From a virus (lineage: Duplodnaviria; Heunggongvirae; Uroviricota; Caudoviricetes), in IMG/VR virus record IMGVR_UViG_651053022_000007, positions 28,836-92,835 of that record: a stretch of DNA of 64,000 nucleotides; one strand, 5' to 3'. Position 1 is the stretch's first letter; each line of letters starts with the position of its first letter. The notes under the pieces were generated by a model. It was not told the origin of the DNA. It made no database searches and saw only the letters and a program-made list of their open reading frames with translations. Both the position numbers and the translations under genes were made by a program. Of the stretch, positions 37,264 through 62,860 are shown in pieces.

Positions 37264-37452
37264 TAACTGCCGCTCAGCCCATGCTTCTTCAATATCAAAC
37301 CGGGTCACCAGCGCATCATAGAATTTCTTAACTGTTTTTTCCCATGACGCGCGTGTTATCTGGTTTGTCACCTCGCATATAGCATTAAATGCCTCCGTTG
37401 ATGGTAGTCTTTCATAGCCACGACCACCACAACGCTGGCAGTCTCTGATAAC
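37264..37452 (-). pseudogene. Q antiterminator 3' fragment
   Basis: about 80% identical by eye to the 3' end of the Q gene at 60606..61427 including its downstream flank. Confidence 0.5.
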
Positions 37453-37697
37453 ACGAAGCTAAGGTTGGTAATTAAGGAGTTCTCCACGGGTCAGGTGGAG
37501 TGCGTGCGCCGGACACGGGTGAACATCCGGCACTGACAGTTTACTGAAAGGATATGTCCCTGAAAAGTCAGGGCATAAAGCGAAAGCGCACGGCGAAATT
37601 GGTCTCTCTGTACGGTGTCGTTAAATTTAGTTCGACCGTGCGCTTCCGGTTGTGGCACTCCGCGAAATGGCGCGGCGGTAAGTATGGCGGGGTTATT

Positions 37698-37716
37698 CGG
37701 TTGGATCACCTCCTTA
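37698..37716 (+). rRNA. 16S rRNA 3'-terminal 19-nt fragment (start of an rrn spacer fragment)
   Basis: CGGTTGGATCACCTCCTTA, followed by spacer with tRNA-Ile and tRNA-Ala. Confidence 0.6.
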
Positions 37717-37784
37717 CCTTAAAGAAGCGTACTTTGAAGTGCTCACACAGATTGTCTGATGAAAATGAGCAGTAAAACCTCTAC

Positions 37785-37861
37785 AGGCTTGTAGCTCAGG
37801 TGGTTAGAGCGCACCCCTGATAAGGGTGAGGTCGGTGGTTCAAGTCCACTCAGGCCTACCA
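37785..37861 (+). tRNA. tRNA-Ile (anticodon GAT)
   Basis: AGGCTTGTAGCTCAGGTGGTTAGAGCGCACCCCTGATAAGGGTGAGGTCGGTGGTTCAAGTCCACTCAGGCCTACCA. Confidence 0.85.
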
Positions 37862-37903
37862 AATTTGCACCGCAAATTTGAAGAGGTTTTAACTACATGT
37901 TAT

Positions 37904-37979
37904 GGGGCTATAGCTCAGCTGGGAGAGCGCCTGCTTTGCACGCAGGAGGTCTGCGGTTCGATCCCGCATAGCTCCACCA
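37904..37979 (+). tRNA. tRNA-Ala (anticodon TGC)
   Basis: GGGGCTATAGCTCAGCTGGGAGAGCGCCTGCTTTGCACGCAGGAGGTCTGCGGTTCGATCCCGCATAGCTCCACCA. Confidence 0.85.
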
Positions 37980-37994
37980 TCTCTGTAGTGATTA

Positions 37995-60030: not shown

Positions 60031-60181
60031 AGATCAATAAGCACTTCTCTGATAGGCTCATACCGCTTTTGCGCAAAGCAGATGGGCCTGAGGTTTGCTT
60101 GTGACCCCAACGCATGAGCAGATGGCTGGTGGGTGCCCCTAACACCCACCAGCCGCCCATTTACCACAAATAAAAAAGCCT

Positions 60182-60379
60182 TCACTGCGGAAGGCGTCTG
60201 TAACAACCGAACTGATAGTCTGCCAGACCCGCCATAACCAGCTGGGTCAGTATTAACTGGCAGCGTTCGCGTGAAAGGTAAGTATTCTGCGCAATCTCCC
60301 CGGCTGTCGCCGGTTCGGTGACGCTTAATTCATTAAACACCACTCTGGCGGTTTCTGTCATATCCTGCTGTTTCAGCAT
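60182..60379 (-). CDS. small hypothetical protein
   Basis: likely start MLKQQDMTE within ORF 60182..60466. Confidence 0.3.
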   Translation of the reverse strand: MLKQQDMTETARVVFNELSVTEPATAGEIAQNTYLSRERCQLILTQLVMAGLADYQFGCYRRLPQ

Positions 60380-60605
60380 GTCTTTTTCCCTTTTCCGGTT
60401 AACGTGACACACCAATAACTCTTGTCGAAAAAGCCAGCAAGCTGAAAGACAGGTATTCACCGCCACCAGCGCGTTTACTGTACTGACGCGATTTCAGTCA
60501 TAAAAAACCCGCCAGGCGGCGGGGTGTAAAAAATCTTCTAACGTCAGGCATAAAACGCCCATCGTTAGAGCAAATTTACCACAGATTCGGGAAAAATCAA
60601 CAACA

Positions 60606-61427
60606 CTATCGCGTTACCCTCTTTAACTGCCGCTCCGCCCATGCCTCTTCAATGTCAAACCGAACCACCAACGTATCGTAAAAGCGTTTCACTGATTTTT
60701 TCCACGTATCAAGCGTGATAGCACTCGTCACTTTGCATATGGCATTAAATGCCTCCGTTGATGGTAGTCTTTCACAGCCACGACCACCACAACGCTGGCA
60801 GTCTCTGATAACAGGCATACCACGTTTTACCGACTCTTCACGATGAATGGCGACACCACGCCCACGGCAATCCTTACAGGCGGTGGAAACCTCACCCTTT
60901 CCGCCACACTCCGGACAGGCAACTTTTACCACTTCCTTGACTTTTTTCCATTCTTCCCAGTAAGACGAATACACACCTTTCGTACACTTTGCCCATACCG
61001 GCGGCTTACCATCCGGATACTGGACCTTGTTTGTAAAAACTACGCTTTCAATAAATTTTTCCCCATAGCAACAAGGGCACTGCTTTTTACTCGCTACGCT
61101 GCGGGCATAATCCTCAAAAGCGTACGAAGCCATAATGCGCATCACTACCGGTTTTATTTCTGCCGGAAGTTTTCTCAACGCCGCCACACGATCGCACCGA
61201 CTGAGTGCATAATCTGCCAGTAATTCTGTTGCCCGCGCCCTGTCATTCATACTGATGCCCATTTTCCCCAGGAACGCAGAAAACCCCATCTCAGCCCGAT
61301 TCTGTGTCATGCCCTGCGCGGCCATCACATCAGTGATACTCAGCGCATCTTTCGACGTTGAGGCCGATGCATCAGTCAGGCCGGGGGATTTTGGGGAGTA
61401 GTATTTCGGTAAATCTTCCAGTTTCAT
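60606..61427 (-). CDS. lambda-type late antiterminator Q
   Basis: 273 aa; similar to lambda Q (FHSPKSP-like YYSPKSP, DVMAA.GM, ASYAFEDYARS, Cys clusters, C-terminal TWKKSVKRFYDTLVV). Confidence 0.75.
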   Translation of the reverse strand: MKLEDLPKYYSPKSPGLTDASASTSKDALSITDVMAAQGMTQNRAEMGFSAFLGKMGISMNDRARATELLADYALSRCDRVAALRKLPAEIKPVVMRIMASYAFEDYARSVASKKQCPCCYGEKFIESVVFTNKVQYPDGKPPVWAKCTKGVYSSYWEEWKKVKEVVKVACPECGGKGEVSTACKDCRGRGVAIHREESVKRGMPVIRDCQRCGGRGCERLPSTEAFNAICKVTSAITLDTWKKSVKRFYDTLVVRFDIEEAWAERQLKRVTR

Positions 61428-61441
61428 TTTTTGACCTGCTC

Positions 61442-61804
61442 TTAATGCATTATGGGGTAAATCTTCACCCCCAGACGTCCACCAGATACTGGCTGACCAC
61501 GAACGATATTGATTTCATCAAACTGCTCATCGTCCATTAGCAACCCCGCATGCGTCAGCGCATCCAGCGGCGCTTTCAGAATATTGTCCAGATCACGGCG
61601 GCGCTTATCCGGTGGTTCTGCAATAATTTTTATTGCCAACCTTCCGGACAGGCTTAATTTCAGCCGCTGCTGGCGAACAATAAGCGCCACTGCCCGGCGA
61701 TAACGCTCCCCGGCTTTTGATACAAAATATGTGCTGCCACGACGACGCCAGTAAGTGTTCACCGTTGGCGGGTAAGGCAAAACAAATTCTATGCGTTCAG
61801 TCAT
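61442..61804 (-). CDS. rusA: RusA Holliday junction resolvase
   Basis: 120 aa; LPYPPTVNTYW...PDKRRRDLDNILKAPLDALTHAG. Confidence 0.8.
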   Translation of the reverse strand: MTERIEFVLPYPPTVNTYWRRRGSTYFVSKAGERYRRAVALIVRQQRLKLSLSGRLAIKIIAEPPDKRRRDLDNILKAPLDALTHAGLLMDDEQFDEINIVRGQPVSGGRLGVKIYPIMH

Positions 61805-62860
61805 TCATGCTTTCCACTTCAGGACACCCGAATTTCTCGCGTGCATTAAAAAACGAATCAGCAACAACAGCTGGCTGCCGTGTTTTTCTTCAAAATCTTT
61901 TACCCCGGCGTGCAGTTCGTTATGACATTTACGGCACAGCGGAATAACAAACAAATCATCAGCCTTTGTTCCCATCCCTCCCAGTCCATGACCAATGATG
62001 TGATGCGGATCATCTGCCTGATTGCCACACGTCATGCATTTCTGCGTTTTTACCCAACGCGTGTATACAGGCATCTCTTCCCGTTGTGATTTCTGGCGCT
62101 GGAGATACTGAGCCGGTGACTCCGGATCAACGGCAATGCTGACCACCGTCTTTTCCTGTGGCGGGTTTTGCTGGTGGGCGTGAGGCAGCGGCGCAAGATT
62201 TTTTGTGCGCTGCTTCAGTATGCTGGTGGCGGTCTGCTCTCCCGGTACGATGTCGCTTTCACGGTACATTGAGCGGATTTTTTCCGCACGCAACCCCAGC
62301 GAACGACGTAATACCGCTTCCGGTAGCGCGTCCGCCACCTGATTGCGGACCGCCCACCAGGATAATTCAGCCAGCGATAATTCCCGTTCCTGCGAGCCAT
62401 TCATTGCATGGCGTATGACGTCAATCATCCATGCAAACAGGTTTTGGTGAGCAAGTTGCCCGAGTGATTCGGAGGTCTGGTCGCGCAGCTGGTTGTCGCA
62501 GTGCCAGCACAACACCATTGCGCCGGTACCATAACGGTGAATGACGGTTTCACTGTGGTGATAATCGCCGTGTGGCCACTGGCAGGATTTAACATGGCGC
62601 AGTAACCAGTCAGACAATGCGCCAGCGCCACCAGCAGCACGAATCACTCGTTCGTCGCTGAAAAATGGCAGTAATGATTTATCCTCCGCCAGCGGCTGGC
62701 GAACGGCAGGAACGACCCCGGACGGCAGATTACGCATGCTTTTCGGTTCCGGCTCCACCAGTACCCGGGTATTGTGGAATACCGGCATGGATTCACGGCC
62801 CGGCTTAACGATCACCAGCCCGAGTTCCGGTACCAGAACAGGTCGAAGTAATACCCGCAC
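61805..62860 (-). CDS. YdfU-like (DUF968) protein with HNH-like C-terminal Cys/His motif
   Basis: 351 aa; CMTCGNQADDPHHIIGHGLGG...IPLCRKCHNELHAG. Confidence 0.6.
   Translation of the reverse strand: MRVLLRPVLVPELGLVIVKPGRESMPVFHNTRVLVEPEPKSMRNLPSGVVPAVRQPLAEDKSLLPFFSDERVIRAAGGAGALSDWLLRHVKSCQWPHGDYHHSETVIHRYGTGAMVLCWHCDNQLRDQTSESLGQLAHQNLFAWMIDVIRHAMNGSQERELSLAELSWWAVRNQVADALPEAVLRRSLGLRAEKIRSMYRESDIVPGEQTATSILKQRTKNLAPLPHAHQQNPPQEKTVVSIAVDPESPAQYLQRQKSQREEMPVYTRWVKTQKCMTCGNQADDPHHIIGHGLGGMGTKADDLFVIPLCRKCHNELHAGVKDFEEKHGSQLLLLIRFLMHARNSGVLKWKA

Follow-up and report, generated by a model that had tools for sequence, protein, structure and literature searches.

The window analysed here is the whole of a 64,000-nucleotide (nt) stretch of a Caudoviricetes record (IMGVR_UViG_651053022_000007, positions 28,836 to 92,835). 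It carries two paralogous lambdoid blocks coding for a DUF968 (YdfU) protein, RusA and the Q antiterminator, referred to as copy A (37081–39962) and copy B (58856–63044). BLASTN comparison within the window aligns them in four segments: 38303–39377 with 61973–63044 (88.7% identity over 1075 nt), 38003–38305 with 61502–61804 (88.1%), 37140–37453 with 60500–60813 (83.0%) and 37081–37141 with 58910–58970 (95.1%). At the nucleotide level the similarity of the two copies is far above chance. The initial annotation had described two related ydfU-rusA-Q blocks at different stages of decay, copy B being intact and copy A degraded. The kinship of the blocks is borne out by these pairwise alignments; how copy A came to be in pieces is the question addressed here.

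Copy B codes for a DUF968/YdfU-like protein of 351 amino acids (aa) (61805–62860; Pfam DUF968, PF06147, 3.7e-64, with a weak match to HNHc_6), a RusA protein of 120 aa (61442–61804; Pfam RusA, PF05866, 1.8e-16, covering the full-length profile) and a Q antiterminator of 273 aa (60606–61427; Pfam Antiterm, PF03589, 9.8e-51). The three open reading frames (ORFs) all lie on the minus strand and are intact, as had been noted for 60606–62860. Exact matches of all three proteins are found in public collections, RusA being present on 139 public contigs. Downstream of Q are a DNA methyltransferase gene (58981–60030, minus strand; Pfam N6_N4_Mtase, 2.4e-44, and annotated as such in the reference locus of strain 4/1-1), a complete tRNA gene with a CAT anticodon (58856–58931, minus strand, identified by ARAGORN, Rfam and reference annotation, and annotated as tRNA-Ile in related genomes) and a tRNA-Arg gene. 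The methyltransferase gene positioned between Q and the tRNAs is found solely in the copy-B prophage. Copy B has all the elements of a late-regulation block, namely DUF968, RusA and, immediately downstream on the same strand, Q followed by tRNAs and lysis genes, and its gene order and strand agree with those of annotated prophages. It lies on a contig (57639–63044) that belongs to the lambdoid prophage found at the ompW site of Escherichia coli of sequence type 131 (ST131) and that matches strain 4/1-1 in two pieces, 100% and 99.2% identical. Note that two reference loci are used below: L001, from strain EC958, is of the copy-A type, while L002, from strain 4/1-1, is of the copy-B type.

Fragments of copy A and the 38-nt signature

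The copy-A region can be divided into five fragments (C1 to C5). Three of them (C1, C4 and C5) match L001, the intact second lambdoid prophage of ST131 strain EC958, to which they are identical at 2335 of 2336 nt and in which the order tRNA, Q, rusA, DUF968, small ORF, hokD is complete. C1 (37081–37453; L001 4001–4373, 373 of 373 nt) holds 22 nt of a tRNA gene (37081–37102), an intergenic region and the last 208 nt of Q (37246–37453, minus strand). The tRNA remnant is the first 22 nt of the gene that is complete downstream of copy B, and a truncated IS2 lies beyond it. C2 (37454–37697) is an inverted piece from between ydfC and dicB in the other prophage and agrees with L002 16391–16636 at 100% identity (244–246 nt); an RNA family search of it found neither DicF nor any other RNA family. 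C3 (37698–38002, plus strand) is a 305-nt rrn spacer composed of about 20 nt of the 16S rRNA end, tRNA-Ile(GAT) and tRNA-Ala(TGC). It is 99.7–100% identical to rrn operons, with a best-place identity of at least 99% in 5327 of the 5452 matching E. coli records, and its first 38–40 nt recur at 45715–45754, where the contig with the tRNA-Glu spacer begins. C4 (38003–38305, minus strand; L001 5062–5364, 303 of 303 nt) codes for rusA codons 1–101, the gene ending at 38003 where it adjoins the rrn spacer. C5 (38306–39962, minus strand) comprises DUF968 codons 1–296, an ORF of 90 aa (39195–39467) and hokD/sok (hokD at 39635–39790); the interval 38303–39962 is identical to L001 5533–7192 at 1659 of 1660 nt. 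The Pfam profiles are covered at positions 1–124 of 171 for DUF968 and 1–110 of 124 for RusA. Every junction listed in the initial annotation is present, including the 3' end of Q next to a 22-nt tRNA fragment and the truncated rusA next to an rrn spacer; the ydfC-dicB fragment, between the Q remnant and the rrn spacer, had been missed. Finished ST131 genomes, JJ1886 for instance, have each block unbroken and the two far apart.

The boundaries of the fragments follow a fixed rule. The exact matches between copies A and B that touch the breakpoints (37081–37118, 37416–37453, 38003–38040, 38268–38305 and 39340–39377) are all exactly 38 nt long. C1 and C4 have such an exact repeat of copy B at each end, while C5 begins at the first copy-A-specific base and ends 38 nt inside a shared block. 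The repeat 39340–39377 is identical to 63007–63044, the right end of the copy-B contig. The maximal exact repeats of the whole window show a sharp peak at this length: 17 pairs are 38 nt long, 3 are 39 nt, 2 are 37 nt and 1 is 40 nt, and no other length from 20 to 78 nt is represented more than 7 times. All exact repeats of 37–40 nt are located at 35754 or beyond, none lying within 1–35756, and the peak takes in junctions that are unrelated to these prophages (IS2, rrn spacers and tail-fibre genes). This peak is the k-1 overlap that a de Bruijn graph with k=39 gives to its contigs, and the 17 repeats of 38 nt at mapped breakpoints are the overlaps that ends of concatenated contigs would carry.

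The same value of k is obtained from a simulated compacted de Bruijn graph, built from the EC958 locus L001 and copy B of the window at k=37, 39 and 41. The k=39 unitigs include L001 4001–4373 and 5062–5364, which are exactly the short fragments C1 and C4, and the unitig coordinates are displaced by 2 in the k=37 and k=41 graphs. A further trace of the graph is found at 58232|58233, where 87 nt are absent in comparison with every natural relative (L001 3237–3323, L002 28130–28216 and several draft contigs). This length equals 49 nt, the span of a cluster of single-nucleotide polymorphisms (SNPs) between copies A and B, with 38 nt added, which is what one k=39 bubble node contains. An assembler-made deletion is therefore also present on the contig of the "intact" copy B. 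Taken from the sequence, these features argue, with a probability of about 0.93, that positions 35757–64000 are concatenated k=39 short-read contigs rather than a continuous chromosome, and that the "decay" of copy A is artefactual.

The DUF968-RusA joint and the composite copy B

An ORF of 434 aa (37889–39193, minus strand; ORF list and Pfam) reads from DUF968 into RusA and then through into the antisense strand of tRNA-Ala. The in-frame deletion that had been proposed to fuse YdfU to RusA is present in the sequence, about 168–171 nt, a multiple of three, being absent. Its position is accounted for by a shared block of 209 nt (L001 5327–5535) in which the copy-A reference and copy B of the window are identical. 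The left copy-A node ends at L001 5364, 38 nt inside this block, and the right node starts at 5536; the window joins 5364 to 5536, leaving out the 171 nt of 5365–5535. BLAST reports 168 nt absent with a 3-nt overlap, since CAT is read on both sides of the joint. The joint 38305|38306 would be made of two copy-A nodes linked without the 171-nt content of the shared node, 171 nt being the sequence that a Velvet-type graph would store for that node. The frame is kept across it because 171 happens to be divisible by 3. The 434-aa DUF968-RusA ORF is artefactual. It is hardly credible that the source strain truly carries a DUF968(1–296)-RusA(1–101) fusion, a chimeric HNH-like/RusA nuclease in a rearranged remnant, with the k=39 coincidence being accidental or due to recombination hot spots.

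Public sequences were searched for these arrangements. The copy-A arrangement is found in 0 of 5,426 complete E. coli genomes, no match of at least 80% in a single piece being obtained. Ten ORFs were looked up by exact sequence among about 15 billion proteins, and none of the 7 chimeric ORFs tested is there, the three copy-B proteins being the only ones present. A homology search with the 434-aa fusion ORF gave no near-full-length homologue, returning only DUF968-RusA chimeras that are joined differently and many partial proteins of 296 aa at contig ends. Dozens of DUF968 proteins labelled as partial have 290–298 aa and 99–100% identity; of the contigs that encode them, no fewer than 26 from independent drafts stop at the equivalent of window position 38306/38307 (five were checked directly). 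Another contig, from the copy-B prophage in a draft, stops at 60776, where the 38-nt block at the end of C1 begins. Judged from these contig ends, unrelated short-read assemblies break at the very nucleotides of the window "deletions", and such shared coordinates are what concatenated contigs would predict. DUF968 proteins with internal duplications, or fused to RusA at different junctions, occur in SQNY01000154.1 and in other public drafts. The paralogous DUF968-RusA block is suggested to be a recurrent origin of assembly chimeras in E. coli drafts.

These observations bear on genuine decay, in which deletions and insertions by illegitimate recombination in the cell left the DUF968-RusA fusion, the truncated rusA and the Q stub. 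Many cryptic prophages of E. coli have kept only part of their late region, as exemplified by Qin, Rac and DLP12 of K-12, the joints of the window show 1–4 nt of apparent microhomology, the fragments keep prophage order and orientation, and fused DUF968-RusA ORFs, with different junctions, exist in public drafts. Genuine decay is nevertheless very improbable. It offers no cellular reason for five ends placed exactly 38 nt into inter-copy repeats or for base-exact k=39 unitigs, and its breakpoints should be independent of assembly parameters, while those of copy A follow them in the 38-nt ends, the window-wide peak and the unitigs. The pieces inserted between the prophage fragments are themselves bounded by repeats. 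The divergence expected under relaxed selection is not seen either, as a single substitution separates the 2336 nt of copy A from the intact prophage, although 3 kb hold five or more new joints. Finally, the junction is absent from the finished genomes and coincides with the ends of independent draft contigs. Microhomology-mediated deletion was considered and rejected: overlaps of 1–4 nt do not exceed what the ends of BLAST alignments gain by chance, and the 38-nt rule places the breakpoints exactly. The decayed K-12 prophages Qin (ydfU-quuQ) and DLP12 (rusA-quuD) have genes of the same DUF968/YdfU, RusA and Q families. The chromosomes with the deletions of K-12 cryptic prophages are finished and have been resequenced repeatedly, and the sequences there have also diverged, whereas the fragments of the window are undiverged and have breakpoints set by the assembler k.

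Copy A lacks L001 4374–5061 and 5365–5535, stretches at which the two prophages differ little or not at all. The first has its counterpart in copy B at 60814–61501 (5' part of Q and 3' end of rusA), with mixed A and B alleles; that of the second (61805–61975), the 171 nt "deleted" from copy A, is identical to the copy-A reference. Alleles of the L001 type are found in copy B at 30 sites of 60870–61096, at one site (61444) and at 5 sites of 61806–61925, while within 60814–61501 alleles of the L002 type occupy 4 sites of 61284–61383; outside the two stretches the alleles of copy B are of the copy-B type. Copy B agrees with L001 throughout L001 5327–5535, where 5 sites differ from L002. The "intact" copy B is thus a composite of both prophages at 36 informative sites, and the allele mixture at 60814–61501 is as expected for a collapsed repeat. 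The exact sequences of Q and of the DUF968 3' end in copy B, which is in part a consensus of the two prophages, are therefore not assignable to either. The fragments are collinear with, and near-identical to, single places of finished genomes and the parts that are absent are inter-copy repeats, an organization that agrees with concatenated contigs. The proposal of different stages of decay does not stand, given breakpoints that reach exactly 38 nt, the k-1 of k=39, into exact inter-copy repeats, copy-A pieces that are essentially unmutated, "deleted" parts that are collapsed into copy B and independent drafts that break at the same nucleotide.

The mosaic of A and B alleles in copy B resembles gene conversion, mosaicism is normal among lambdoid phages and the breakpoints do fall at blocks of identity between the copies. 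Homologous recombination or gene conversion between the prophages in vivo, which would make the patchwork real DNA, could be envisaged on these grounds. Homologous exchange, however, gives hybrids and not fragments with a fixed 38-nt overlap, and the intervening rrn spacer, dicB-ydfC fragment and overlapping IS2 variants would not be brought in by it. Nor does it account for the presence of the 38-nt peak at junctions that have no relation to prophages. In vivo exchange is accordingly given a minimal share of the probability.

The nucleotide sequence of the copy-B Q gene is present in no complete genome, the best match being 99.0% identical, and its protein has exact matches on draft and metagenome contigs alone. 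Other contigs code for an identical Q protein with nucleotide sequences that differ (97–99.8% identity). The idea that this Q allele is itself a recurrent assembly chimera was dropped because those contigs encode the same protein with different nucleotides. The Q protein is probably a natural allele and is, for that reason, not used as evidence of an artefact.

Proposed assembly model and relation to known ST131 genomes

Under the concatenated-contig reading, the source would be an ST131-like E. coli strain with two lambdoid prophages, each having an intact DUF968-RusA-Q block and the blocks being about 88% identical to each other. A pseudo-chromosome would have been built by joining the contigs of a short-read de Bruijn assembly with k=39. 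The near-identical stretches (5' Q with 3' rusA, the final 171 nt of DUF968 and the region of the tRNA) would have been kept as one path and placed in copy B. The copy-A-specific stretches would have been left as orphan nodes, each of them reaching k-1=38 nt into the flanking repeat. The orphans C1, C4 and C5 would then have been set end to end with the dicB-ydfC piece, the rrn spacer and IS2 variants, and this concatenation would yield the apparent truncated Q, the truncated rusA and the in-frame DUF968-RusA fusion. The assembler and scaffolder are inferred only, from behaviour that is Velvet-like.

Several points weigh against this reading. The node starts at 38306 and 39963 have no 38-nt prefix, and therefore an extra assumption is needed, that these pieces were appended inside a scaffold. 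C1, C4 and C5 are in biological order and orientation, which random dumping of contigs does not predict. The patch of 30 copy-A-type SNPs in the Q gene of copy B may be a genuine allele of the strain, and it is longer than the default limit of bubble popping in Velvet. The first two points find an explanation if C4–C5 and the fragment at 39963 were joined inside a scaffold, which would leave the starts at 38306 and 39963 without a prefix, and if the contigs were ordered against a reference, because reference-guided ordering would keep the prophage order of C1, C4 and C5.

Scrambling in silico by something other than an assembler, either a synthetic test construct or model-generated DNA derived from E. 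coli repeats, would fit the fact that all the fragments belong to E. coli elements that are repeated or present in many copies and that their arrangement is in no public complete genome. The constant k-1 overlap, the unitig-exact boundaries and the bubble-node arithmetic are, on the other hand, fingerprints of a de Bruijn assembler, and kilobase stretches are 99.9–100% identical to real genomes. Such an origin is considered extremely unlikely; together with genuine decay and in vivo recombination it takes up the small remainder of the probability left by the concatenation of contigs.

The two paralogous blocks are real and already known in ST131. In finished genomes they are located at 2166.7–2169.0 kb of EC958 (NZ_HG941718.1) and at 1448.5–1450.8 kb of strain 4/1-1 (NZ_CP023844.1), and both are present in JJ1886. 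The copy-A pieces of the window are 99.9–100% identical to the EC958 block and copy B is 99.2% identical to the 4/1-1 block, with the gene order hokD, small ORF, DUF968, rusA, Q, tRNAs in common. Unlike in the window, the finished blocks are complete and have no rrn spacer, IS2 stub, dicB-ydfC fragment or DUF968-RusA fusion.

A precedent for such a patchwork is the "complete" genome of ST131 strain NA114, in which Velvet contigs of 54-bp reads were ordered on SE15 (Forde et al. 2014, PMC4134206). In that genome, prophage and island contigs without a placement, some 160 kb in all, were "junked" together upstream of dnaJ, and the resulting differences were qualified as "not biologically relevant" (PMC4134206). 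The window is similar in that ST131-type prophage, island and repeat fragments, separate in EC958 and JJ1886, are concatenated at one place, and 54-bp reads are compatible with k=39. By this likeness to the description in PMC4134206, NA114 (CP002797) is a candidate source.

In consequence, copy A of the window should not be counted as a case of prophage decay, gene fusion or rrn/tRNA capture, and it would be uninformative on prophage evolution. The matter is one of data quality, about 28 kb (35757–64000) of assembly fragments being presented as continuous chromosome. Every other oddity of this region is suspect as well, for example the IS2 "internal duplications", the tandem sok, the hsdR-tRNA and IS2-tail-fibre fusions and the stray rrn spacers. 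Whether maximal exact repeats pile up sharply at one length (k-1) is a cheap test that needs no reference and is usable on other windows.

Other fragments in the window

Between 35757 and 57638 the sequence is likewise pieced together from fragments of 130–2000 nt, which come from the two prophages, IS2, rrn spacers and tail-fibre genes. Three overlapping IS2-variant contigs (35885–37080, plus strand, by BLAST against complete IS2) resemble IS2 with internal duplications and end at the junction with C1; their 38–39-nt terminal repeats are at 36197–36234, 36539–36577 and 37043–37080. The IS2-variant pieces at 35885–37080, 54983–55279 and 63428–63680 have common IS2 start and end coordinates and 38–39-nt terminal repeats, and the apparent diverged tandem duplications in IS2 give ORFs with repeated InsC and InsD segments. 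In an ORF at 55028–55669 a piece of IS2 orfB, which stops at "DNGSC" just as at 37080, is fused to a tail-fibre-assembly protein; 55277–55314 is a 38-nt inverted repeat of 50019–50056.

Orphan rrn spacer contigs are found at 37698–38002 (tRNA-Ile/tRNA-Ala) and on the minus strand at about 45480–45754 (tRNA-Glu). They share the first 38–40 nt, from the 16S 3' end, and have no 16S or 23S gene attached. Tandem Rfam sok matches are present at 39788–39959 and 39960–40122. At the join 39962|39963 the end of the copy-A contig is followed by the start of a hok/sok-QueH contig of the other prophage, and 39925–39962 is a 38-nt repeat of 40088–40125. Inside the DUF977 gene, at 41105–41110, about 42 nt are absent in comparison with L002 21710–21751, with a similar gap relative to L001; either a further dropped node or a natural indel may account for this. 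The carboxyl terminus of a type I restriction HsdR-like ORF of 1092 aa (50437–53715) runs into tRNA-Arg(ACG) at 53599–53675, presumably another contig joint.

Positions 1–35756 form a single long contig, to all appearance unbroken, from a different prophage, with portal and terminase genes and with isrK and C4 antisense RNA at 11991–12176. Its part from 28000 to 35756 is 100% identical to a few ST131 genomes, while the best match of 1–25000 is 97.9% identical over 80% of the query and is found in genomes that are absent among the other ST131 matches.

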